Assembly (NCBI GenBank): GCA_963798085.1
Contig: CAWCRS010000008.1
Coordinates: 96,001 to 160,000 of the forward strand
DNA from: an uncultured Gemmatimonadales bacterium
Lineage (GTDB): Bacteria; Gemmatimonadota; Gemmatimonadetes; Longimicrobiales; RSA9
DNA: 64,000 nt
Direction: 5' to 3'
Position numbers and translations under genes: made by a program. Positions 6,202 through 34,547 of the stretch are shown piece after piece. The notes beneath the pieces were generated by a model. That model ran no database searches. It worked only from the letters and a program-made list of their open reading frames with translations, and was not told where the DNA came from. Every line of letters starts with the position of its first letter. The stretch's first letter is position 1.

Positions 6202-8626
6202 ATGCTGCCTCTCGACGTGCGTTATGCGCTTCGCCTGCTGCGCAAGCGGCCCCTCTTCTCCTTCGCCGTCGTGCTCACGATCGCGCTGGGCATTGCATCC
6301 AGCACGGCGATCTTCAGTCTCGTGGACGGCGTGCTGCTGCGGCCGCTGCCCTATCGTGATCCCGGCAGCCTGGTCTTCGTGTGGGAGCGCGACTTCCCGC
6401 GCGACCGCGATCGCAATGTGGTGTCCCCGGCGAACTACCTGACGTGGCGCGAGCAGCAGGGACTGTTCACGGGTATCGCCGCACTGGCAGGAACGAGCGG
6501 CACCATCACCGGGCAATGGCGACCCCGAGCGGGTCGGTGTGGTGCTCGCCTCGCCGGCGTTCTTCCAGCTGGTGGGCGTGCAGACTGTGACCGGGCGCGC
6601 CTACGCAGAAGCGGAGGACGCCGCCGGTGTGGCGCCGACGGCCATGCTGAGCTGGGAATTCTGGCAGCGGCGTTTCGGCGGCGATCCTGCCATCGTCGGC
6701 AGCACCATCACGCTCAATGACCGGTCGCGCACCATTGTGGGTGTGCTGCCGCGCGGCTTCCACTTCACGCTGTCCTTCGTGGTGGGCAGCACGCTGGCGC
6801 AGGATGTGTGGATTCCGCCGCAGTTCAGTCCCGCGGCGCGCACCGCGAGCGGCCGCTACCTGCAGGTGCTGGCGCGGCTGGCACCGGGCGTCTCGCGGGA
6901 TGCCGCGCAACTGCGCATGGCGGCGCTGGCGAAGCAGCTGGAGCAGCAGTTCCCCAGTCGGCAGGCGGGCTGGGGCGTCAACATCGTGCCCCTGCAGGAG
7001 CAGACCGTAGGCGATGTGCGGCGCGCGCTCCTCATCATTTTCGGCGCGGTGGGCTTCGTGCTGCTCATTGCCTGCGCCAATGTTGCTAACCTGCTGCTAT
7101 CGCGCGCGGCGGAGCGGCATCAGGAGGTGGCGGTGCGGGCGGCGCTGGGCGCGGGCCGCGGGCGAATTGCCCTGCAGCTCATGACAGAGAGCCTGGTGCT
7201 GGCGGCGACGGGCGGGCTGCTGGGCGTGGGTCTGGCCGCCTGGGCGGTGCGCGTGCTCAAGCTCATGGGTCCATCGATTCCTCGGCTGGACACGGTGAGT
7301 CTGAACAGCGGCGTACTGGCGTTCGCCGCGGTGACCACACTGCTGGCGGGCGCGCTGTTCGGCATGGCGCCCGTCCTGCACGTGATACGCTCGGATCTGG
7401 CAGGCTGGCTGAAAGGCCGACTGGGAATGGGCGGCTCGCGGGAATCGCGGCGCACCCGCAGCGCGCTGGTGGTGGCGGAGATCGCGCTTTCGCTGGTGCT
7501 GCTGATCGGCGCGGGTCTGCTCATTCGCAGCCTGCTGCGCCTGATCGATACGGGCGTGGGCTTCGACACGGGACACCTGCTGACGGCGCAGATCGAGCTG
7601 CCGTCCGCGCGCTACCCGCAGGATGCCGATCATGTGCGGTTCTTCGACGACCTGATCACTCGGGTGCGTGCGCAGCCGGGCGTGCAGTCGGCGAGCGCCA
7701 TCACATTTGCGCCGCTCGGGGGGTCGGGTTCGGCGACCAGTTTCTGGGCGAACGACCGCGCCATCCCGGAGCCGGGGCGGTTCCCCGTGGCGGACGTACG
7801 CTGGGTGCACCGTGACTATCATCGTGTTATGGGCATTCCCCTGGTGACCGGGCGCTACTTCGATGCGAGCGATCGCGCCGGCACACCCTACCACATTCTG
7901 GTGAGTCAGGCGACCGTGGCGGAGCTGTGGCCGGGGCAGAATCCGCTGGGCAAGATCATCTCCATGCCGTGGGGCGATACGCTGGTGGCGGAAGTCGTGG
8001 GTGTGGTGCAGGACGTGCGCACGGAAGGGCCGGCCACCGCGCCACGCTCCATGCTCTACTGGAACTACGAGCAGTTCCAGTCATTTCCCTTCATGACCGT
8101 GCTGGTGCGCACCGCAGGCGACCCGCTGGCGTTCACGTCCACGCTGCGCAGTGCCGTGCACGCGATCGACCCGCAACTGCCGGTCTTCGACGTGAAGACA
8201 ATGGACGCACGCTTCTCCGATGCGCTCACACGCGCACGCTTCGGGGCATCGGCACTGGCCTCTTTCGCCGTGATCGCGCTGCTGCTGGCGTGCGTGGGCA
8301 TCTACGGCGTGATGTCCTACATCACGGGGCAGCGCACGCAGGAGTTCGGGGTGCGCATGGCCATGGGCGCGACGACGCGGGAGGTGGTGGGCCTGGTGCT
8401 GGGCGAGGGCGCGCGGCTGGTGGCGCTGGCGCTGGGAATCGGAATGGCGGCCGCGCTGCTGCTGGCGCGGTTGCTTCGTACCCTGGTGTTCGAGGTGGGG
8501 ACAACCGATCCGGTGACGTTCGGCATCATGAGCGCGTTGCTGGCGGTGACCGCGCTGGCCGCGTGCTGGCTGCCGGCGCGCCGGGCCGCGCGCGTGGACC
8601 CGGTCCGGGCGATGCGCATGGACTGA
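6202..8626 (+). CDS. ADOP-type duplicated ABC permease (MacB_PCD/FtsX x2), one frameshift near 6512
   Basis: DVRYALRLL..TIALGI N-terminus, LLIACANVANLLL, EFGVRMAMGA, PARRAARVDP. An extra G in GGG at ~6511-6513 joins the two ORFs. Confidence 0.88.
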
Positions 8627-9680
8627 CGGACCGTCTTGGCGTTCTTGGCTTTGGCGCAAGTCGCTATGGGTGCGCCCGGATCACGCACGCAGATTGTGCG
8701 CCATGTCACGGCAGAAGCGCTTCTACCTCGCAGGCGCGTCGTTCCACGTGACGGCGCGCACGTTGAACCACGAACCGTGGTTCGACGAGACGCTGCGCGA
8801 TCGCGTGGTAGCCATCCTTGCGGAGTGCTTCTCACGCTCCGACGCAAAACTGATCGCGTACGTCGTCATGCCGAACCATTTTCACCTGGTCGTGCGCCAG
8901 CAGAGGCTTCCGCTGGGTCACATCATGCAGCGCGTGTGTCGCAGTGTTGCGCTGGCTGTGAACCACGCGCGCGAGCGCGAGGGATATGTCTTCGAGCGGC
9001 GTTATCGGGCCAAAGCCTGTCTGGACCCGGACTATCTGCGCGACGCTATCAGCTACGTTCACCTGAATCCCAGACGAGCCGGTCTCTGCACGGAGCTGCA
9101 CCAGTACCAATGGAGTTCGCATCCCGAGTATGCACAGTGCGCCCCTAACAGGCTCTCAGCCCTTGTCCGGCCGCATCTCACCACGGCGCTGGAGCTGTAC
9201 TCACCGCGCGGTCCCCTGGATGCGTCGCGCCAGATTCTGGCCTATCTGGCCTACCTGGCATGGCAGGAAAGTCGCCACCAGGAATCCGATGACAGGCCAC
9301 CGCCGCCGCGCCCGCGGTGTGCGTACGGCGATCACTACTGGAGGACGAACTTCACCACGCTCACGCTCCCGCTGAATCCCAAGCCCGATCTGCGCGACAT
9401 CGTGTTGCGTGTTCTCCAGGAAGAAACGCCTGGCGTGAACCTGAACATTCTGCGTTTGCGACGAGGCGGAACAGCGATGGTTCGAGTCCGCCACCGAGCC
9501 ATCGAGCGCGCATATCTCGCAGGCTATCGCGGTGTCGATGTTGCGCGCTTTCTCAACATATCCGAGACCACGGTCTCGAAGGTGTGCACGAGCCTCGTTG
9601 CCAGCGGGGTCAATGCCCTGGCGGGTCGCGAGCCCGGCATGGGAGGATGGCGCACAACCCAAGAACGCCAAGACGGTCCG
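8627..9680. mobile_element. Element bounded by 22-bp perfect inverted repeats enclosing an HUH (Y1) transposase-like gene
   Basis: 8627-8648 CGGACCGTCTTGGCGTTCTTGG; 9659-9680 CCAAGAACGCCAAGACGGTCCG is the exact reverse complement. Confidence 0.7.
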
Positions 9681-21265: not shown

Positions 21266-22414
21266 TCACCGCCCCCGCCGAAGACCCGTCCCCGCGTAGC
21301 CGGTCAGCTCGACGTAGCCCCTGCCTGCAATGGGGGCGCCGGCGCGCGTGCCGCGCACATCTACGGCGCCCTCCCAGTAGCGCACGGCGAGGTTCAGTTC
21401 CTGGTCTGCTGACACGGGTGTTACCTCGAGGTCGAGGCCGAGACCGGGCACGCGCACGCGCCACCGGGAAGGATAGCGCGCTCCGTCCAGCGGGCTGATC
21501 CAGGTGGCCAGCGGGGTGATCGTTGCGGCTGCGGCATCGAGATGGGTCGTGCCGCCGCGCGCGTCGACGAACGTGCCGGCGCTGAACGGATCCGTGCTGT
21601 CGTCCGAGCGGCGCAGGCGGTACACCATCAGCTCGGTGGAGTCGTTGAGCTGCAGCGCGAACCAGTCCCAGCCGGCGACGCCGGGTCCCAGGCTGCTGGT
21701 GCTCCATTCGCGATCGAACCAGCTGGCGCCCTGGACGCGCGTTTCGCCCGCTGGTGTATGCACGGTGCCTTCTGCAGGCAGGCGGGTGAACGAGTAGTAG
21801 TAGCTCGCGCTGCCCGGGGCGTCGCTCTTGCGGCTGAGGCCGGCATCGCCGTGCAGAACCAGCGGCTTGCCCGCAGTCAGGACGAGATCAATGGCGACAC
21901 CGCTGTCCGCAGCCTGCACGTGCAGCGGGAAGAATGCGGAATCGGTCGAGCGCATGCTCCAGTCTTCGAGCCACACGCGGAAGGGCGCCGCTTCCGCGCC
22001 GGCCAGTTCCTCCGCGCCGCGCGCGAAGCGCTCGAATGCGTGATAGCGACCGGCCCGCACATCCGTGAGCGCGAAGTGCGCCATGTACACCTGGCGCGTG
22101 GCCCAGCCCGATGCACGCTGCGGCATCGCGGGCGCGAGCGCGCTCCGGAAAATCGTGAGCTGCCAGCCGAAGCGCGCGCCCGTTTCGCTCTGCAGATTGC
22201 CGGTGAGATACCACCACTCGGTGCGGAAATCGGGGTGCGGGCCGTGGTCGCGCGGAAATACGAACGGCCGCGGTACAAACGCACGGGCATAACCCGCTGT
22301 GTCCTCGCCGCCCACTGCCTGCGCGACGGACAGCGTGGCGCGCACCACGTCGCGCGGCGAGGCGCCACCCAGCAGGCGCACGGCCAGCGCGCGCGAGCAC
22401 AAGCACCAGACCAC
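21266..22414 (-). CDS. AttH/CrtC-like lipocalin-fold secreted protein (start uncertain)
   Basis: FPRDHGPHPDFRTEWWYLTGNL, SYYYS, WFDREWS, GWDWFALQL, YWEG..GYVELTGY. Confidence 0.88.
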   Translation of the reverse strand: MVWCLCSRALAVRLLGGASPRDVVRATLSVAQAVGGEDTAGYARAFVPRPFVFPRDHGPHPDFRTEWWYLTGNLQSETGARFGWQLTIFRSALAPAMPQRASGWATRQVYMAHFALTDVRAGRYHAFERFARGAEELAGAEAAPFRVWLEDWSMRSTDSAFFPLHVQAADSGVAIDLVLTAGKPLVLHGDAGLSRKSDAPGSASYYYSFTRLPAEGTVHTPAGETRVQGASWFDREWSTSSLGPGVAGWDWFALQLNDSTELMVYRLRRSDDSTDPFSAGTFVDARGGTTHLDAAAATITPLATWISPLDGARYPSRWRVRVPGLGLDLEVTPVSADQELNLAVRYWEGAVDVRGTRAGAPIAGRGYVELTGYAGTGLRRGR

Positions 22415-22496
22415 CCGCAGCGAAGCCGCGCCACAATGAGCGCCGGAGCAGGCTCACCGGTTGCCGCACCGGGCCGCAAGCGCGTAATGCATGCGA

Positions 22497-25037
22497 TTAC
22501 TCCTCGCGCAGCGCGGCGGCGGGCGGCGTTCCGGCCATGCGCAAGGCGGGATAAATGCCCGCGAGCAGCGCAGCCAGCAGCGCCAGGCCAACGGCCTGCA
22601 GCAGGCCGGTCCCGTCGGCGTGCAGGTTCATCGTCCAGCCGAAGGAGCGACGATTCACCACACGGATGAGGAGCCAGGCCATGGCCAGTGCCAGCGGTGC
22701 GCCCAGTACGCCCGCGGCCAGGCCCATGAGTCCGGTCTGTGCCGTCACCAGGCCGCGCAGCTGTCCCGGTGTCAGGCCCGTGGCGCGCAGTACGCCCAGC
22801 TCGCGGGTCCGCTCCAGCTGCAGCGCCATCAACGAGGAGAGCACGCCCACGAACGCGACCAGCAGCGCCAGCGCGCGCAACACGCGTGTGATCGCGAAGG
22901 TCCGATCGAACACATCGAGCGTCACCTGGCGCAGCCCGCGATTGGAGCGCACGAACAGCTGCTGCACACCGGCCGTGCGCTGCGTGATGGCTGCCGCCAC
23001 CGCCTCGGCATCCGTGCCGGGCGCGAGGAACACCGCCATCGAGGAAACACCCGCGTCGCGCCACCACGTGTCATAGGCAGCACGATCCAGGAAGGCCACG
23101 CCGAATTCGCTGGAATAGTCCCGGAACACGGCCGCCACCGGAAAACCATGAGGGCCGCGATCGGTGGCCAGAACCGCCGTGTCGCCTGCACTCAGATGAT
23201 TGCGCCATGCGAAACTCTCGGACACCAGCAGCGCGCCGCGCGCGAACGCCGGCCACACCGCCTGCGCATCGCCCTGCAGGAAGCTGAACGCCGCGCGGTG
23301 CCGTGGGAACATGGCAAGGGCCACGAGGTGCAGGTCGCCGGCCGGATAACGCAGCGTTATCTGGCGGTAGCGGCTCACACCGGCAATGCCGGGCGACGAC
23401 GCCACCGCCGCCACTGCGCGCGGATCCAGCGTGCCTTCGCCGCGGCCGCTGGTCGCCGTGGAGACGTAGAGGTCGGCCTGCAGCGTCGTGTCCAGCCAGT
23501 GCTCGACACTGCGCCGGAAGCTGCTCACCATGATGGCGACCGCGGCGCCCACCGACACGGCCACCATGAGCGCGGCCACGGCCGGACCGGTGCGACTGAG
23601 CGCAGCCGTAACGCCACGCACGGCCATGCTGCCCAGCTGCCCGAACAGGCGGGTCGCGAGCGGGCGCAGCAGGCGCATGAGCAGCATGGTTCCCAGCGGC
23701 GCCAGCAGGGCCGCGGCCAGCACGACCGAGAACATGGCGCCGAAGCCCGCACGCAGATCGCCGCCCGGCAGCGCAATGAGGATGGCCGCCAGCGCCAGCA
23801 GCAGGGCGCCGCCTGCCGCGGCGCGCAGCGCAGTGCGCCGGGCCCGCGACTCGAGCAGCGAGCGCACCGTGGCGGATCGCGGCGTCGTCGACGTGGCTTC
23901 GCGCAGCGGCGGCAGCGTGGCCAGCACGGTGGCGCCCATGCCGAGCAGCACGCCCTTGAGCAGAGAAACGGGGGCGAGCGAGACGTGCGTGACGCTCACC
24001 GCGAAGTACAGGTCATTGATGGTGCGCGCCACCAGCCGCACCAGCGCACTGCCCAGCGCCGCGCCCAGAACCAGACCGAGCAGCGTCGCCAGCAATCCGA
24101 TGACCACGGCCTCACCCAGCACCAGCGCGAAGATCTCGCGCCGGGTCACGCCCACGGCGCGCAGCAGCCCGATCAGCTCGCGCCGCTGCACCACCGCGAA
24201 ACTCATGGTGTCATAGATCAGCAGCGCGCCAAACACCAGTGTTATCAAGGCGAAAGCGGAGAGGTTCAGCTCGAACGCTCGGGCCATGCCGAGCGTGCTC
24301 TGAGCCCGGGCCGCCGTGGTCACGACTTCCGCGCCCGGTGGCAGCACGGCGCGCACGCGCTGCAACTGCCGCTCGCCTGCTTCGCCCGCCGCCAGTTCGA
24401 GGTCAATGCGGTCCAGGCCGTGGCTGCGTCCGGTCAGCTCCTGCGCCGTCGCAATGTCCGCGAGCACCAGATCGGCGAGACCCGCACGACTGCGCGCATC
24501 GGACGGCCGCAGCACACCGGCCACCCAGGCAGAATGCGTGCGGCCCGCGAACTCGAGTGTCAGCGAATCACCGGGCGTGAGGCCCAGCGCGCTCGCGGTG
24601 GCCGCGGGCAGGAGCAGCGCGCCCGGCCGCGTCAGCATCACCGCGAGATCGGCATCGCCGGCCGACACGTCCAGGTATCCGCGGAACCTCGCCTCGGCGA
24701 ACGGGTCGACGCCCAGCAGCTGCGCGCTGCGCACGCCGGCCGCCGCGCGCAGGCGCACCGCCGCGTCGACGACCGGCGCGGCGGGCAGGCCGAGATCCAC
24801 ACGCAGCACGCGATCGAGACTGTCCGGCAGGCCGGCCGGTCCCGCCAGCAGCTGGTGCGTGGTGCGCCCGAACACGGCTTCCGCTGAGAGCGTGAAGGCG
24901 CGGCGCGCGCTGGCCGTCGCCAGGTCGACCAATGTGACCACGGCCACACCCAGCGCAATGCCGATCACGGCCAGCGCCGCCTGCCAGGGATGACGCAGGT
25001 AGTGCCGCAGACCCGCACGGCGCAGCAGCGGACTCAT
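22497..25037 (-). CDS. FtsX-like ABC transporter permease (AttF/G type)
   Basis: Two FtsX domains ([22 protein letters not shown]); overlaps the ATPase stop. Confidence 0.9.
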
Positions 25038-25735
25038 CGGAGAGCACCGCGCTCGAGCAGATGGCCGTGCGAGAGCTGCAGCACGCGGTCCGCCCGCTGC
25101 ACGACACGCTCACTGTGTGTTACCACCAGCAGCGTACGCCCGGCCGCGCGCGTCAGCGACTCGAGCAGGTCGAGCACGGCTTCCGCATTGTCGTCGTCGA
25201 GATTGCCGGTGGGCTCATCCGCCAGCACCAGCACCGGCTCGTGCACCAGCGCACGCGCAATCGCGACGCGCTGCTGCTCACCACCCGAAAGGCGATCGGG
25301 AAACGTGTCCGCCCGGCGCGCCAGCCCGACCCGCTCGAGCAGTGCATGCGCCACGGCAGGATCCGCGCGGCGACCATTCAGCTCCAGCGGTAACAGCAGA
25401 TTCTCCGCGACCGTCAGCGTGGGCAGCAGATTGAAGAACTGGAAGATGAATCCCACACGGCGCCGCCGGAACAGCGTGCGCGCCCGCTCGTCCAGACGCC
25501 CGAGCGAGACGCCGCCCACCACGATCTCCCCCGCGTCCGGCAGATCGATGCCGCCCACCAGATTGAGCAGCGTCGACTTGCCCGATCCGCTCGGCCCCAG
25601 CAGCACCACGAACTCACCCGCACCCACACACGCGCTTACGCCATCCAGCACCACGTGCTCCGCGTCGCCCTCGCGGTAGCTCTTGCGTACATCCGTCAGG
25701 CGGATCAAGACATCGGTTTCGGCAGCGTTGCGCAT
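25034..25735 (-). CDS. ABC transporter ATP-binding protein (LolD-like)
   Basis: [36 protein letters not shown]. Confidence 0.95.
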
Positions 25736-27408: not shown

Positions 27409-27601
27409 CCACCCGCAGCCGAAGCGGAGCAGAGCCGCGGCGGCATCGTCGCCTGAAATACGTTGTCAGGAAGATTGTGTCGGAGTGCGCCCGGCCTGCG
27501 CCGAAGCGCCGGGGACCGCTGCGCGCGCCTGCGCACGAATCAGGATCGCAGACCCAGCCCCAGCCGGCTGCAGCTCAGTTCCACTCCCGGCTGCCCGTGG
27601 G

Positions 27602-28004
27602 CTACAGGAGCCAGCGCAGCACGCGGAACACCCAGTCGGCGCTGGCGATCAGCGTGGGCAGCAGGGCGAGGCCGGCGGAGAAGGTGAGGCCCATGCGGAA
27701 GAGCACCGGGCCCGTGGGAAGCACCTTGCCGCCGCCCAGCTTTTCGATCGCGATCTCGGTCATGGGCCCGAACAGGTAGCAGAATGTTTCCCATCACGGC
27801 GAAGACCAGAACCGCGCCCAGCGGCAGCATCGCATGCGGGTCCGGCGGCAGCCAGGTGAGCAGCCGGATCACGCCCAGCGAAAACAGGCCGGCCGCCCCT
27901 ACGGCGAGGTTCCACTTCAGGCGGCGGGCCTCCCACCAGCGGAAAATGGCCGGGGCGCTGCGCGCGGCAGGCGCAGGAAAGAGGAACTCCGTGAGCGCGG
28001 TCAT
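27602..28004 (-). CDS. Hypothetical small membrane protein, frameshift near 27782
   Basis: MTALTEFLFPAP..RWWEARRLKWNLAVG..AVMGNI, continuing CYLFGPMTEIAIE..LFRMGLTFSAGLALLP..RWLL* after a one-base shift. Confidence 0.65.
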
Positions 28005-28369: not shown

Positions 28370-28685
28370 ATGCAACGTTCAGTCAGTCGGGTGGTGGCGG
28401 CGTGCGTGCTGCTTCTGGGCGGCTTCGCGATGGCGCTGAGCGCGAAGGAGGCGCTGGGCTGCGCCAACATGATCTCGGGTGACATCGGTCATCCGGTGAC
28501 GGGCTACCTGATCGGTACGGAGACCCGCACGCAGACGTGGACAGTGACAGTGATCACGGCGCCTGGCGGTGTGGGCGGATCGGCCGCTTCCACCGTTTCG
28601 GTCACGTACGACGTGGGATTCTACCGAGATGTCCGACGGCACACGGCTGGCTATCGACTGTCGGAGCTACGACGTCACTTCCTGA
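28370..28685 (+). CDS. Secreted two-cysteine mini-protein, paralog 1 (~104 aa after removing one extra base near 28624)
   Basis: GGGAGG RBS; signal peptide ending ALSA; corrected C-terminus GFYEMSDGTRLAIDCRSYDVTS* aligns with the 29373-29675 protein. Confidence 0.75.
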
Positions 28686-28700
28686 GTCCGCCGTTCGGAG

Positions 28701-28723
28701 GGGACCGGCACCATGCCGGTCCC
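28701..28723 (+). terminator. GC-rich hairpin right after paralog 1
   Basis: GGGACCGGCA-CCA-TGCCGGTCCC perfect 10-bp stem ~15 nt after TGA 28685; no U-tract. Confidence 0.45.
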
Positions 28724-29372
28724 GCTCCACGGCGCCCGTTGCGCCGGCTCCCGCCGCTGGTGTGTCCGTTGCGCGTGGCGCGCGAGGCGGCGGTGCGTCC
28801 CCGTCGCCCTGGCAGTGGGATGCGGCGTTGGCTGGAGTGACCGCGGCCGGTCGCCTCTAACCTTGTCTTAGCACCCATCCTCGCCGGGTCCGTCCGCGCC
28901 GCCGGGTGAGGGTTGCATCGCCTGTCCGGTTCATGGAATGCGACACGCGTGTCCTCGTCCGGCGCGTGCCTGCTGCCCGCGTCTCGCCGAATGTCCGATC
29001 CGGCTATGGCCTTCCGAAACCGCAATGACAACCCTGTCACGGCCGGCATCAGCCCCCGCCGCGCTGCAAGCCGGGCAGGCGCGAGCCGCGGCGGGTGGCG
29101 TACGTGGCGACGGGCGGCTGGGTCTGGCGCGCCTGGTGTCATTGGCGGGGTCCGTGTTCACTGGCTGCGCAGAAGCGGGCAGACATGGGAAGACCTGCGC
29201 AGTGCGGGACGCCGAGGCGTGCCTGCGATTCCTTCTAACTCACTGTTGCAGGAAGACCTGGAGCCGTGACGTCCGGCGGTCCGGGGTGTGCGTTGCCAGC
29301 GGGCAGGGGCGGCACTCGCGGTCGCAACAGATCGGCCGCTCTCTGCAACACACAACGCACCGGGAGGAAGAC

Positions 29373-29675
29373 ATGCGGGCATGGCGGGGAGCGGCGCTCA
29401 TTGCGTGCGCGAGCATGACGGCGCTGGCGTCGGCGCGGGCGCACGCCAAGGAATCGGGATGTGCAGACACGCTGAGCGGAGCGACGGGCAATGGCGAGCC
29501 GATGAGCGGCTACCTGCTGGGTGCGGAGACGCACACGTATTACTTCCCGTTCTTCTCCGGGGGTACGTGGATCCTGGCGCAGGGCACCTACAGCGAGGGC
29601 TACTACCAGTTCAGCGATGGCACGCGTCTGCTCATCAGCTGCGACGATCTGAAGATCACGGTCACGGGCACGTGA
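29373..29675 (+). CDS. Secreted two-cysteine mini-protein, paralog 2 (100 aa)
   Basis: GGGAGGAAGAC-ATG; signal ending ARAHA; mature KESGC...GYLLGAET...EGYYQFSDGTRLLISC. Confidence 0.8.
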   Translation: MRAWRGAALIACASMTALASARAHAKESGCADTLSGATGNGEPMSGYLLGAETHTYYFPFFSGGTWILAQGTYSEGYYQFSDGTRLLISCDDLKITVTGT

Positions 29676-29729
29676 ATGCCCGCGCGACCGGGAACGCAAC
29701 GAAATTCACCTGGACCGAGGGGGACCGAC

Positions 29730-30791
29730 ATGATGCGCTCGACAGGTCTGATCCGGCCGTCCCGGCGGGTCCGCATTGCCGCGCTGCTGCTCTGCGACGT
29801 AGTCGCGGGCTGCGGTGGACGGGTTGCCGACGCATCCGGCGTCATGGAGGAGCAGCGGCCATCGCTGGTGCTCGAGGCGGTGGAAGCGTCGGGTCCGAAG
29901 GCAGCAGGCGAGCACCCGGTCGAGCTGTTTCACACGACGGATCTCGCGCTGGTGGGTGACACGATCGTGCTGGTCGATTCGGGGAACGACCGCCTCGTGC
30001 TGCTGGACGCCAGTCTGAGTCCGCTCGCGGTGATCGGCAGGCAGGGAGCCGGCCCGGGCGAGTTCGAAGCGCCGCTCACCATCCGGACCGCGCCGGACCG
30101 GATGGTGGTTTACGAGCTGGGCAACGCGCGGTTCAATGTGTTCGAGCGCAACGGCGAGTTCCGCCAGGTCATTCCCGGGATCACGAGTGGTGGCTGGTTC
30201 GAAATGCTGAGCGACGGCCGCGTGGTCGTGCCGGCTCGGTCCGCCGCCAACTACCTCGCCTTTGCCGGCGACACTGCGCACGCTTTCGCCGGCCGTGTGG
30301 ACACGGCGCGCACGGAGCAGCAGATCAGGGCCGCAATGGAGGGGTTCCGGTACCCGCTGCTGGCGGCCACGGGTGACACGCTGCACGTGTTCGACGCGGT
30401 GGCGGGCGTGCTGCTCAAGTACGATGTCCGTGGCAGGCTGCTGTTGAAGCGAGCGCTGCCCACGGCGCTGCTCGATTCACTGAAGAGCGAGCTGCACGAC
30501 ACAATGGCGCCATTTCTGAAGCGGGGAGCGGTGATCGGTGGGGCGGGCGTGGCGAAGGGTCTGACGGTCACGCGCGATGGCCGGCTGCTGCTCCTGCTCA
30601 GCTATTCGCGCACGGTCGCGCTGCTGATAGACCCGGTGACCTATCGAGCGACCCGCATCATCGTGCGGGATGATGGGCCAGCAGCCACCAGCTTGCGTGT
30701 GGCGGCGGCGGCAGTGTACGCGCAGCCGAGGCTCTACGCGGTGACATCGGACAGCGTGATCGCCTATCGTCTGGGGCCGGCCACGAAATGA
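29730..30791 (+). CDS. Six-bladed beta-propeller (NHL-like) lipoprotein
   Basis: GAGGGG RBS; lipobox-like VAGC; LVDSGNDRLVLLD..IGRQGAGPGEF propeller signature. Confidence 0.75.
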   Translation: MMRSTGLIRPSRRVRIAALLLCDVVAGCGGRVADASGVMEEQRPSLVLEAVEASGPKAAGEHPVELFHTTDLALVGDTIVLVDSGNDRLVLLDASLSPLAVIGRQGAGPGEFEAPLTIRTAPDRMVVYELGNARFNVFERNGEFRQVIPGITSGGWFEMLSDGRVVVPARSAANYLAFAGDTAHAFAGRVDTARTEQQIRAAMEGFRYPLLAATGDTLHVFDAVAGVLLKYDVRGRLLLKRALPTALLDSLKSELHDTMAPFLKRGAVIGGAGVAKGLTVTRDGRLLLLLSYSRTVALLIDPVTYRATRIIVRDDGPAATSLRVAAAAVYAQPRLYAVTSDSVIAYRLGPATK

Positions 30792-31507
30792 AGGATCGCG
30801 CCGCACCCGCCAGCATCGCGCGGACGCGTTTTCCCCTGATGCTCGGGCTGGCCGCGTGCGCCGGTGCAGGCTGGCTGGGCGGCAGGATCTGGAGCGCGCA
30901 GCGAGGCGCCGTGCAGGAACACGCAGTCAGGGGCTGGACAGGGATCCCATTCGCGGGTTCCGGCATCGTGGTCCCGGCGACGGCCGGCACCGCGACGAGC
31001 GGCACGCAGCCCGTGTTGCGCATTTTCGGCGATTACGAGTGCTCCGGCTGTCGCAGCCTCGAGGCGACGATCGGCGATTCGCTGCGTGCGCTGGCCGCGC
31101 GCGGTCGCCTGCGCCTCATCTACTACCAGGCCCCGTTACGGGCGCATCGCAGAGCACCCATCGCCGGCGCGTTGACGTATTGCGCGGAGGCGCAGGGCCG
31201 TGGCATTGCCGTGCAGCACGCTCTGTACGCCAGCATTGGCGCATGGAGTCACGATGCGCCGTTGCCCGCCATGCTGCGGGCTGCAGCCGGCGCCGACGCC
31301 GATACGCGGCGCTTGCAGACGTGCATGGCGAGCGGGTCAGGCGAGGCTGCAGTACGGCGCGACCGGGCACTGGCCGAACGCATCGATACGCGAGCGGTGC
31401 CGCTCATACTCCTGGACAGCATGCGACTCGAGGTCTCGTCCTGGCGCGCACTGCTTCGACATGTGAGGAGGCGATTGCTGCCTGATGACGTCCACGAGGG
31501 TGTGTGA
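30788..31507 (+). CDS. Membrane-anchored DsbA-like thiol-disulfide oxidoreductase
   Basis: FGDYECSGC (CxxC), APL..H..A..CAEAQG, AVP cis-Pro loop; ATGA overlap with the propeller gene. Confidence 0.8.
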   Translation: MKDRAAPASIARTRFPLMLGLAACAGAGWLGGRIWSAQRGAVQEHAVRGWTGIPFAGSGIVVPATAGTATSGTQPVLRIFGDYECSGCRSLEATIGDSLRALAARGRLRLIYYQAPLRAHRRAPIAGALTYCAEAQGRGIAVQHALYASIGAWSHDAPLPAMLRAAAGADADTRRLQTCMASGSGEAAVRRDRALAERIDTRAVPLILLDSMRLEVSSWRALLRHVRRRLLPDDVHEGV

Positions 31508-31690: not shown

Positions 31691-31993
31691 TCAGGAAGTG
31701 GACGCGGGACCCGAGGCCGGCTCTTCGTCGCGTACGATGCGATCGATCTCGGATTGCTTCTGCTTCATCTGCTCTTCGATGGCGTGCACCTGATCGCATG
31801 CGGCGGCCAGCTCTGCCGGCGCCTTGCCCGCGGCGTGAAGCGCGATCACGCGCTCGCCGATATCGTGCAGCAGGTCGGTCCGGCGTCGATTGAGCCCACT
31901 GATCTCCATGCGCAGGCGGGTGGTCTGCGCCAGGTCGCTCGCCTCGTCCTTGGCCTTCTCCAGCCCCGATTTGATCTTGTCCATGAGGCCCAT
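31691..31993 (-). CDS. Hypothetical coiled-coil protein
   Basis: GAGGAGG RBS; amphipathic helical sequence MGLMDKIKSGLEKAK..LRMEI..IGE. Confidence 0.7.
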   Translation of the reverse strand: MGLMDKIKSGLEKAKDEASDLAQTTRLRMEISGLNRRRTDLLHDIGERVIALHAAGKAPAELAAACDQVHAIEEQMKQKQSEIDRIVRDEEPASGPASTS

Positions 31994-32338
31994 GGGTGGT
32001 CCTCCTCGCTCGCGAAGGTGCGCTACGCGGCCTCGACTCGTCAGCGCAAGCTGAGCGGGCCGCCGGCCTGCGGCAAGTCGGGCAGTGCCGGATTACCGCG
32101 GCTCCTTCAGACTTCGGCTAGCGGGGCCCCCCGGTTTCAGCGGTGCGACCGACGGCGCGATCGACAGGCGCTGGCAACCGGACGAATCTCAGCGGGATCG
32201 AAGCGGGTGCAGCGAAAATCGCGCGGACCGCCCGAGCCCGCGAACAAAGGCATCCGTGACTGTGTAGATGCAGCCCGGAGCCGGACGGTCCCATGGGGCG
32301 GGACGGTCCCGCAACCGCAAGGCAACACGGAGGCAAAG

Positions 32339-33880
32339 GTGAGTTCATTGACACGCAAGGCATTGACGGCCGGGGGCTTCGTGGTGTCCGTGCTCGTGGC
32401 GGCCACCGGCATTGAGTCGATCCGGCAGGCCCACGCGGAACCCGCGACGGCCGTTCCGCAGCAGGTGGCCCAGGCAACGAGCAGCACGAAGAGCCCGCCG
32501 GCGACATTCAATGTCGCCGATGCGCTGAGCAAGGCTTTCAGGGATGCGGCGCACACGGCGCTGCCGGCAGTGGTCTCCATCGAGATCAGCGGCCAGCAGC
32601 TGGTCTCGGACCAGAATGGCTCGCCGTTCCGCGGCTTTCCTTTCTTCGATAACACGCCTCGCCGCGGCCAGCAGCCGGAAACGCAGCAGGTGCACGGCTA
32701 CGGCTCGGGTTTCGTGTTCCGGCCCAATGGCTACATCATGACGAACAATCACGTGGTGGAGGATGCCAGCCGCGTGACGGTGCGCTTTTCGGATGGCCGC
32801 GAGATGGCGGCGCGGGTCGTCGGGCGCGATCCCGACACGGATATCGCGGTGGTGAAGGTCGATGCGTCCGGTCTGCCAGTCCTCGATTACGGCAACTCGG
32901 ATGCGACGGATGTCGGCGACTGGGTCGTGGCGCTCGGCTTCCCGCTGACCCTGCGCAATTCCGCTACGGTCACGGCCGGCATCATCAGCGCCAAGGGTCG
33001 CAGCCTCGGCATTCTGCGACAGAACAACGACCAGGCGCTCGAGCACGACATCCAGACCGACGCGGCGATCAACAAGGGCAATTCCGGCGGACCGCTGGTC
33101 GATCTGAACGGTCACGTGATCGGAGTGAACGCCGTGATCGAGAGCCCGACGGGCTACTTCAGCGGCTACGGCTTCGCCATTCCGGTCAACATCGCGCGCC
33201 GCGTCGCCAATGACCTGATCAAGTACGGCGAGCCGCATCGCGCCCGCCTCGGCGTTCAGGTCAAGGACCTGAACGATGCGGACAAGGAGGCGACCCACGC
33301 GCCCAGCCTGGACGGCGCGCTCGTGAGCGAAGTGCAGCCGGGTACGGCGGCGGACAAGGCCGGCGTGCAGCTGGGTGACGTGATCGTGTCCATTGATGGC
33401 ACGCCGATCCACGACGGTGGCGAGCTGACCGAGATGCTGCAGCAGAAGTTCGAGCCCGGCCAGAAGGCGAAGCTGGATCTGTATCGCAGCGGCCGGCGCA
33501 TGACGGTCAATGTCACCCTGGGCGCCTTCGCGTCGACCATCAGGAAGGAGCGCACGGCAAGCGGACCGACACGCGAGCACGGTGTCTCCCGACTCGGCTT
33601 CTCCGCGTCCGACATCACACCGCAGCTCGCGCGCAGCATGGAACTGGGCGACGCGCCACGCAAAGGCGTGGTGATCACGGACGTCGATCCCAACAGCAGC
33701 GCGAGCCAGTATCTGGCCGAGGGCTGGATCATCGATCAGTTCAACGGCAAGGCGATCACCTCGGTGGACGACCTGGATCACGCCACCGCCTCCGTGAAGC
33801 AGGGCGATGTCGTGTCTCTGATCGTGCGCCTGCCGCCCGACTGGCAGCGCACCGTCGTGAACTATCGCGTTCGGCAGTAA
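32339..33880 (+). CDS. degP: DegP/HtrA (Do family) serine protease with two PDZ domains
   Basis: GSGF, TNNHVV, DIAVVK, IQTDAAINKGNSGGPL; GGAGG RBS before GTG 32339. Confidence 0.92.
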   Translation: MSSLTRKALTAGGFVVSVLVAATGIESIRQAHAEPATAVPQQVAQATSSTKSPPATFNVADALSKAFRDAAHTALPAVVSIEISGQQLVSDQNGSPFRGFPFFDNTPRRGQQPETQQVHGYGSGFVFRPNGYIMTNNHVVEDASRVTVRFSDGREMAARVVGRDPDTDIAVVKVDASGLPVLDYGNSDATDVGDWVVALGFPLTLRNSATVTAGIISAKGRSLGILRQNNDQALEHDIQTDAAINKGNSGGPLVDLNGHVIGVNAVIESPTGYFSGYGFAIPVNIARRVANDLIKYGEPHRARLGVQVKDLNDADKEATHAPSLDGALVSEVQPGTAADKAGVQLGDVIVSIDGTPIHDGGELTEMLQQKFEPGQKAKLDLYRSGRRMTVNVTLGAFASTIRKERTASGPTREHGVSRLGFSASDITPQLARSMELGDAPRKGVVITDVDPNSSASQYLAEGWIIDQFNGKAITSVDDLDHATASVKQGDVVSLIVRLPPDWQRTVVNYRVRQ

Positions 33881-33928
33881 CCGCGCGGCGAGCGCGGAAC
33901 CGTTCGCGCGTCTCGCGCCGTTTGAATG

Positions 33929-33961
33929 GAGGCCCCGCCGCTGGCGGGGCCTCGTTGTTTT
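33929..33961 (+). terminator. Rho-independent terminator
   Basis: GAGGCCCCGCC-GCT-GGCGGGGCCTC stem followed by GTTGTTTT. Confidence 0.8.
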
Positions 33962-34088
33962 GCCGGCTACAACGCGAGTTGCAGGGCGGGCGCGCGCGGG
34001 AATTTCCCGACAGCGGGCCTCGCGATCGACTGCTGGAGCCCGGCGCAGGCACGTGCTAGGTTGAGGCGGACACGACAGGAGCCTGACG

Positions 34089-34547
34089 ATGGAAACAGTA
34101 AGGAACAGCAAGGTTGTGGTGCGTTGCCCGTTCTGCGGCAAGCTGAATCGAGTGGAGGCCGCGCGCGCGAAGGATCGCCCCACCTGCGGGGAGTGCACGA
34201 AGCCGCTGCTGCTGGACCGACCCATGATCCTGACGGACGCGGATCTCGACAAGGTCGTGCAGGAGTCCGAAATCCCCGTCGTCATCGATTTCTACGCGGA
34301 CTGGTGCGGGCCGTGCAAGGTCATGGCGCCGCTCTTCGATGAAGCGGCGCGCGAGCGGATGGGGCAGGTGCTCTTCACCAAACTCGACACCGACCGCAAT
34401 CCCGCCGCCTCCGTTCGCTTCGGCGTCCGCGGCATTCCCACGTTCATCATCTTCCGCGGCGGCAAGGAAGTCGCTCGTCAGGTGGGAGCGGTGCCCCGCC
34501 AGCAGTTCAGTCGCGTGCTGGACGAGGCGATCACACCGGGAGGCTGA
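34089..34547 (+). CDS. trxC: Thioredoxin 2 (N-terminal zinc finger)
   Basis: CPFCGKLNR..CGEC zinc finger; WCGPC active site. Confidence 0.9.
   Translation: METVRNSKVVVRCPFCGKLNRVEAARAKDRPTCGECTKPLLLDRPMILTDADLDKVVQESEIPVVIDFYADWCGPCKVMAPLFDEAARERMGQVLFTKLDTDRNPAASVRFGVRGIPTFIIFRGGKEVARQVGAVPRQQFSRVLDEAITPGG

Follow-up and report, generated by a model that had tools for sequence, protein, structure and literature searches.

The DNA studied here is a stretch of 64,000 nucleotides from an uncultured Gemmatimonadales bacterium (assembly GCA_963798085.1, contig CAWCRS010000008.1, positions 96,001 to 160,000), and this whole stretch is called the window below. Between positions 28370 and 31507 it carries a cassette of four genes on the plus strand, which code for two small proteins (mini-proteins A and B), a beta-propeller lipoprotein and a DsbA-like protein. 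Mini-protein and propeller are a real two-gene module of unnamed families with an optional oxidase. The patterns in gene sequence and gene content described below suggest that the mini-protein is probably a secreted antagonist, which is neutralised by the propeller. The cassette has the following features:

28370..28685, plus strand: mini-protein A, about 104 amino acids if read across a frame break, with a signal-like N-terminus, Cys31, head, 32-residue hairpin and a tail with the second Cys
28517..28612, plus strand: hairpin of A, residues 50-81, with Thr/Ser-rich arms and the PGGVGG turn common to canonical members
29373..29675, plus strand: mini-protein B, 100 amino acids, intact, Cys30/Cys90, of the second-copy type with an aromatic, non-alternating hairpin
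29523..29594, plus strand: hairpin of B, residues 51-74 (24 residues), strands E18-37/E40-55 of the mature model
29730..30791, plus strand: propeller lipoprotein, an NHL-type six-bladed beta-propeller with lipobox VAGC (Cys28), likely the immunity protein
30456..30558 (approximate), plus strand: helix-plus-strand insertion of the propeller, whose strand pairs with an edge strand of the mini-protein head in the model of a relative
30788..31507, plus strand: DsbA-like thioredoxin-fold protein with the motif CSGC and a hydrophobic N-terminal stretch, an optional accessory gene

The initial annotation of the window had described two open reading frames (ORFs) of about 100 amino acids with common sequence blocks and strong ribosome binding sites. 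Both the blocks and the binding sites were confirmed, as A and B align with a local score of 121 (with X in A at its break), whereas 2000 shuffles gave at most 53, and a GGAGG-type site precedes each gene. B is indeed an intact ORF of 100 amino acids, and near-identical contigs from one soil run span positions 29396-29657 of it with one substitution, the break in A lying outside. However, A is not intact, and the two genes are not adjacent (spacing 690 bp). The stored sequence of A contains one extra base near 28625, which had been read through silently in the initial annotation. The stored ORF runs from 28370 to 28840 (156 amino acids); in the frame from 28370 the family sequence is lost after Tyr85 and is followed by unrelated residues, and the family tail (EMSDGTRLAIDC..., with Cys97) sits in the next frame and ends at 28685.

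The extra base is probably an assembly error, because other genes of the assembly and of the window carry indels or frame switches as well. Three of 30 conserved genes tested were frameshifted, among these the gyrB homologue, and in 35 kb of the window five frame switches lie under homologue hits, with one more in the gene just upstream of the cassette. The lesion in A is a single base with an intact tail behind it, unlike the decayed mini-protein genes that are present in relatives (L084, L086, L108, L112, L117). The hairpin of A is canonical with its 32 residues. No read or contig spanning the break was found, and a metagenome scan with the first part of A as query gave no match. The protein P0020 was rejected as independent support for A since it is the same frameshifted product. 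The frame switches in the window are located near 6500, 10200, 18500, 35800 and 47200, and the upstream gene that is also split codes for a small membrane protein (27540-28004, minus strand).

Profile matches to the mini-proteins were obtained in 31 of the 401 genomes of the order (Gemmatimonadota); after removal of G021 as a false match and addition of G108 and G343, which were found via their propellers, the family is present in at least 32 of 401. In the phylum sample matches occur in 30 of 401 genomes and in four of 12 families, and all named sources of members are Longimicrobiales or Gemmatimonadota. Besides G021, weak rows at G011, G029:C127 and G069 and two rows from outside the Gemmatimonadota were regarded as chance matches and excluded from the counts. 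Every member detected consists of one small domain (84-142 amino acids), longer fused forms not having been searched by length class.

Both cysteines and the tyrosine of a VGxY motif are invariant in all aligned rows (38/38 and 59/59), so that homologs keep the cysteine pair as expected at the outset. The description of the mini-proteins as having exactly two cysteines holds in the window and for 38 of 38 aligned rows and fails for 18 of 42 further members, which have a third cysteine, located at the hairpin tip in those printed. This subgroup comprises P0019, P0079-P0102, L097 and L099, often with a hairpin of 34 residues, and to judge from the sequences its tip cysteine could cross-link adjacent subunits. 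A disulfide within the mini-protein is likely, because the cysteine pair is invariant, the N-terminus is signal-like (signal peptides were judged by eye) and a DsbA-like gene lies nearby. Export as a lipoprotein via Cys12 was considered and rejected, since the hydrophobic stretch is too short and Cys12 is not conserved.

As stated in the initial annotation, the mini-proteins belong to no named family. Pfam searched with 38 members returned four families that match one member each (best E 0.011), NCBIfam with 59 members two families with one member each, and neither gave a match for the family; PADLOC matched none of four mini-proteins. PDB sequences gave no match (best E 0.12), and Foldseek found nothing at E<=0.001 among PDB and viral models. 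The best VIA fold match was an SH3-like design with Z 4.3. From these models no known fold can be assigned to the mini-protein, which does not make the fold new. A word-index search with B alone returned B itself only, the ESM Atlas no usable match for B or P0008, and viral contigs and plasmids, searched with one query (P0029), no match. No published description of the family was found in a literature search that did not extend to subscription papers and supplements.

The propeller lipoprotein was placed downstream of the mini-proteins by the initial annotation, and the predicted linkage is a general one. A propeller of the same subfamily lies 3' of the mini-protein gene in 52 of 55 loci and in all five metagenome loci with room. 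The three exceptions are two lone mini-protein genes with a propeller elsewhere in the genome and one at a contig end. Subfamily propellers score 154-449 bits, compared to 27-48 bits for other propellers of the same loci. The propeller of the relative G010 was modelled with a predicted local distance difference test score (pLDDT) of 90 as a six-bladed structure whose top Foldseek matches are NHL domains (E 4e-12). DUF5128 (PF17170) matches three of 12 propellers weakly (best E 0.0009) and does not match that of the window. This fold and a GxGPGE repeat motif are shared with NHL-repeat/DUF5128 six-bladed propellers; in contrast to these, with a Pfam match weak or lacking, the propellers described here form a distinct subfamily with a helix-plus-strand insertion. 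The genomes hold many other NHL-propeller lipoproteins, with 31-364 first-look candidates per listed genome.

The distribution of the two genes resembles that of a toxin and its immunity gene. All 30 genomes with a true mini-protein match also hold a subfamily propeller at E<1e-40. At this threshold 52 propeller rows were counted, which is a lower bound as five candidates were scored per genome: 33 lie directly behind a mini-protein gene, four are tandem extras and 15 have no intact mini-protein gene. Fourteen of these 15 have readable upstream DNA; nine keep lipobox and frame and five look truncated or broken. In eight of the nine genomes with such an intact propeller there is no mini-protein match at all, four of them being single-contig genomes, and the positive control G108 was found. 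Genome G075 has mini-protein fragments only, one pair of which is split by insertion sequences ahead of an intact propeller.

At the recN site of one genus two propeller alleles exist, with 81-95% identity within and 66-71% between alleles. The mini-proteins pair G195 with G273 (83%) and G153 with G335 (88%), and the first propellers pair in the same way (84 and 83%, respectively, compared to 67-69% across). RecN kinship pairs the genomes otherwise, G195 with G335 (95%) and G153 with G273 (93%). Mini-protein and propeller alleles therefore match in four of four cognate pairs, against RecN kinship. In two of these genomes (G153, G273) there are additional propellers that belong to the other allele, and two further genomes (G181, G278) have both propeller alleles and no mini-protein. 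A role as plain chaperone is disfavoured, because the propeller is kept intact and doubled where the mini-protein is gone. Comparable extra and orphan partner genes have been described for homogeneous polyimmunity loci (PMC3482391). An adjacent cognate pair with orphan or tandem immunity-type genes, as in polymorphic toxin systems, was thus found, and a multidomain toxin with a trafficking N-terminus and a swapped C-terminal toxin domain was not, among the members of 84-142 amino acids obtained. The distances of mini-proteins and propellers correlate with 0.66, a value confounded by kinship. The initial annotation had offered bacteriocin, signal or variable binder as roles, and of these the evidence favours an antagonist over a variable binder.

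Binding of the two proteins is predicted by structure models. In G010, whose cassette has a single mini-protein gene, the modelled complex reached a score of 0.69, whereas the best of three controls scored 0.01; of the reference sets, 116 of 157 solved complexes and 2 of 215 mismatched pairs attain this mark, counts that are rough when own alignments are used. At least 80% of the contacts are the same between runs, and the pLDDT of the partner is 70-72. The contacts are on the head and the hairpin base, and the hairpin tip is not among them. A strand of the propeller insertion (residues 216-222, behind a helix of residues 194-213) runs along residues 55-60 of the mini-protein, and the propeller of the window has the same helix-plus-strand insertion. 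According to the model the mini-protein would be bound by the propeller through its conserved head with the hairpin left free. Capping of this edge might in turn block self-assembly. Of the roles initially listed for the propeller, namely receptor, immunity or assembly factor, the evidence as a whole favours immunity over an assembly factor.

In the AlphaFold2 model of B (pLDDT 79) a single long hairpin extends from a small beta head; the model has five strands, of which strands 2 and 3 form the hairpin. Hairpin lengths, taken from the LxG to the VGxY anchor, were parsed in 99 of 107 members, in which kin are not independent. They range from 17 to 48 residues and cluster at 23/24, 27/28, 32, 36, 40, 43/44 and 48. 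The length is a multiple of four in 40 of 57 members filtered at <60% identity and in 16 of 25 at <50%. Odd hairpin positions are 46-87% Ser/Thr, resulting in one Ser/Thr/Gly face, and even positions are bulky, charged at the base and hydrophobic or Gly/Ala toward the tip. The Ser+Thr content of the hairpins is 31%. The central part of the mini-protein had been taken for a freely variable binding loop, which was not confirmed: it is a constrained two-faced hairpin outside the predicted propeller contact. Aerolysin-family barrels have alternating faces and a Ser/Thr-lined lumen (PMC3110756, PMC4823867), and the barrel segments contain 23-44% Ser/Thr, a range that includes the 31% of the mini-protein hairpins, over 75 +/- 8 residues (PMC4823867). 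A Ser/Thr-rich alternating segment of this kind is present in the mini-protein family and absent from B of the window.

Second mini-proteins with shorter, more hydrophobic hairpins are found behind the propeller or the DsbA-like gene in further loci (L053, L058, L070, L082, L085, L088, L090, L094, L016), and two mini-protein genes in tandem occur at two metagenome loci, which agrees with the paralogous copies reported initially. A tree of the heads is mostly unresolved and merely hints at a repeated origin of the hydrophobic second copies. Such B-type copies could serve as a second component of the pore or represent a variant.

From these data the following mechanism can be proposed. According to the predictions, the mini-protein is exported and adopts a fold in which one long two-faced hairpin projects from a small beta head that is probably closed by a disulfide. 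The hairpins of several copies would come together as a narrow beta-barrel pore in the membrane of a rival. In the producer, this assembly would be blocked by the propeller lipoprotein, for which binding to the head is predicted. The DsbA-like protein may act as a helper where housekeeping oxidases do not suffice. That the killing step is a minimal beta-barrel pore is somewhat short of an even chance. Even more tentatively, the cassettes may represent a new minimal class of beta-pore-forming bacteriocins, in which a disulfide-stapled head and one hairpin make up 70-90 residues, the hairpin length is tuned in steps of two residues per strand, allele-specific NHL-propeller immunity lipoproteins cap the edge strand and strains hoard propellers against the alleles of their neighbours. 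Many other propeller lipoproteins of Gemmatimonadota would then perhaps be immunity proteins likewise.

Several observations speak against this mechanism. The modelled complex is the pair of a relative and not that of the window, close cousins also pass the test used for the complex, and among the recN-site propellers the columns at the predicted interface vary no more than the others do (p 0.72). The allele test comprises four pairs of one genus. The length rule was weaker out of sample, with 23 multiples of four and 11 lengths of remainder two among the 42 hairpins parsed from 54 new members, and any regular tight-turn hairpin steps by four, so that the rule indicates regularity and not a pore. 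Alternation exceeded shuffles (z>1.64) in only 49 of 89 members, and the hairpin of B (z -0.5) is aromatic and non-alternating like the second copies elsewhere. With 17-48 residues the hairpins are shorter than the ~75 residues of aerolysin-family segments. No fold match to any pore former was obtained, the Z of 3.1-3.3 of the B model to monalysin and aerolysin being at noise level. Finally, the cassette contains no exporter across the outer membrane.

Toxin and immunity could also work without a pore, the hairpin pairing with an exposed beta-edge or binding a lipid precursor in the envelope of the rival and the propeller sequestering the mini-protein. All of the toxin-immunity genomics applies here as well, and the missing pore-former fold and several hairpins that are weakly hydrophobic or short (17-20 residues) fit this explanation. 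However, over 17-48 residues the hairpins have no sequence motif and a two-faced pattern only, as is more in keeping with self-assembly than with a single fixed target, and we regard a toxin of this type as unlikely.

A little less likely again is an allele-specific signal or kin-recognition pair with the mini-protein as ligand or surface tag and the propeller as receptor, the extra propellers reading the neighbours. A receptor that reads signals of neighbours could yield the same genomic pattern, allele pairing and stacked propellers fitting listening as well as defence, and the binding predicted by the models is equally expected. In addition, a sigma-54 activator lies directly upstream of the cassette in four loci (L053, L056, L058, L070). 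However, its counterpart in genome G000 (C3:486930-487946) is on another contig without an adjoining cassette, neither a kinase nor a membrane transducer forms a conserved part of the cassette, and the long hairpin would be left without a role.

It is improbable that the mini-proteins stack into a structural fibre or a channel in the envelope of the producer itself, with the propeller as chaperone or anchor and B-type copies as minor subunits. The two-faced Ser/Thr/Gly hairpin, the strand that the propeller donates in the model, the recurring second copies with hydrophobic hairpins and the third cysteine at the tip in one subgroup would all suit such a polymer. Against it, the loci contain no usher or secretion channel, and a chaperone is not expected to be intact and doubled where its subunit is gone, as in G181 and G278. 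Very improbable is a modifying enzyme acting on the mini-protein as substrate: the NHL fold is common with peptidyl-alpha-hydroxyglycine lyase (PAL), whose metal ligands include His, but the invariant propeller residues are Gly/Pro, one Glu and one Arg, mostly from the repeat motif, with no invariant His, and the median identity of the propellers (25%) is below that of the mini-proteins (36%).

The DsbA-like gene is accessory and not core, because it is found in only 15 of the 52 genome loci and in none of the f7 and f4 loci, and genome G000 carries other DsbA-like genes. It was also present in all four metagenome loci with room, all of which were found via a close-kin query. The protein matches Thioredoxin_4 (PF13462) with 37.7 bits (cut-off 23.2), has the CxxC motif CSGC, and its start overlaps the propeller stop by ATGA. 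The translationally coupled CxxC gene of the initial annotation is therefore present in the window, whereas its description as dedicated is weakened by the 15 of 52 loci.

The genes flanking the cassette vary by lineage and include recN, gyrB, a groEL-like gene and a peptide transporter; one flanking gene set is present in G000 without the cassette. In the window an ABC ATPase, a large permease and a third gene (21266-25735, minus strand) are divergent from the cassette and occur in L017 and L054 as well, which likely reflects common ancestry of the site and not function. Behind the cassette (31691-34547) follow a small helical gene, which in L017 likewise lies close to the cassette, a DegP-like protease and a thioredoxin. 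A glycosyl-hydrolase-like repeat protein of ~1000 amino acids lies 3' of the cassette in L016-L018 and not in the window. In L072 a 48-amino-acid ORF behind the cassette (9508-9654) resembles a bacteriocin precursor with a double-glycine leader and has no NCBIfam match. Upstream of 34 mini-protein genes no sigma-54 -24/-12 motif was detected, and there was no informative promoter, terminator or repeat.

By analogy, the cassette would act as bacteriocin-immunity cassettes do and the hairpin as the stem of a pore former does, outside the aerolysin family and the classical polymorphic toxins. Disulfide-bonded bacteriocins with accessory thiol-disulfide oxidoreductases are known, such as sublancin with BdbAB and pediocin with PedC, and lactococcin 972 is Sec-exported. 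A small secreted antagonist, an immunity gene and an oxidoreductase in one cassette are in common with these, whereas here there is no family model match, the cassette lacks both a dedicated ABC exporter and a membrane immunity protein, and the oxidoreductase is limited to part of the loci.

Polymorphic toxin-immunity and homogeneous polyimmunity loci (PMC3482391) similarly combine a gene for a small exported protein with a rapidly evolving partner gene behind it, with orphan and tandem partners varying between close relatives. In contrast, the system described here has one mature chain of 70-90 residues, no multidomain toxin, no trafficking domain and no known toxin or immunity domain. The aerolysin family (PMC3110756, PMC4823867) shares the Ser/Thr-rich alternating hairpin and, with respect to the model, the five strands with a hairpin between strands 2 and 3. 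It differs by its longer segment, and the mini-proteins lack a receptor domain and a propeptide, match it neither in sequence nor significantly in fold, and have a dedicated propeller. A precedent for propeller-like periplasmic immunity is Tsi1, which binds the exported Tse1 in a pair stabilised by disulfides (PMC3391265). However, Tsi1 is a partial propeller that blocks an enzyme delivered by type VI secretion, whereas here a full NHL propeller lipoprotein faces a partner that is not an enzyme and carries a signal sequence of its own.

If the proposed reading is true, a first antagonism system would have been described for Gemmatimonadota, which are common but have received little study, and neither of its partners belongs to a named family. 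A pore that assembles itself from one hairpin and a tiny head would rank with the smallest beta-pore formers, and the graded hairpins would provide a natural stem-length series for barrel assembly studies and nanopore work. Immunity would also be a testable function for one subfamily of the numerous NHL-propeller lipoproteins, and the cognate and non-cognate allele pairs of one genus permit a direct test.

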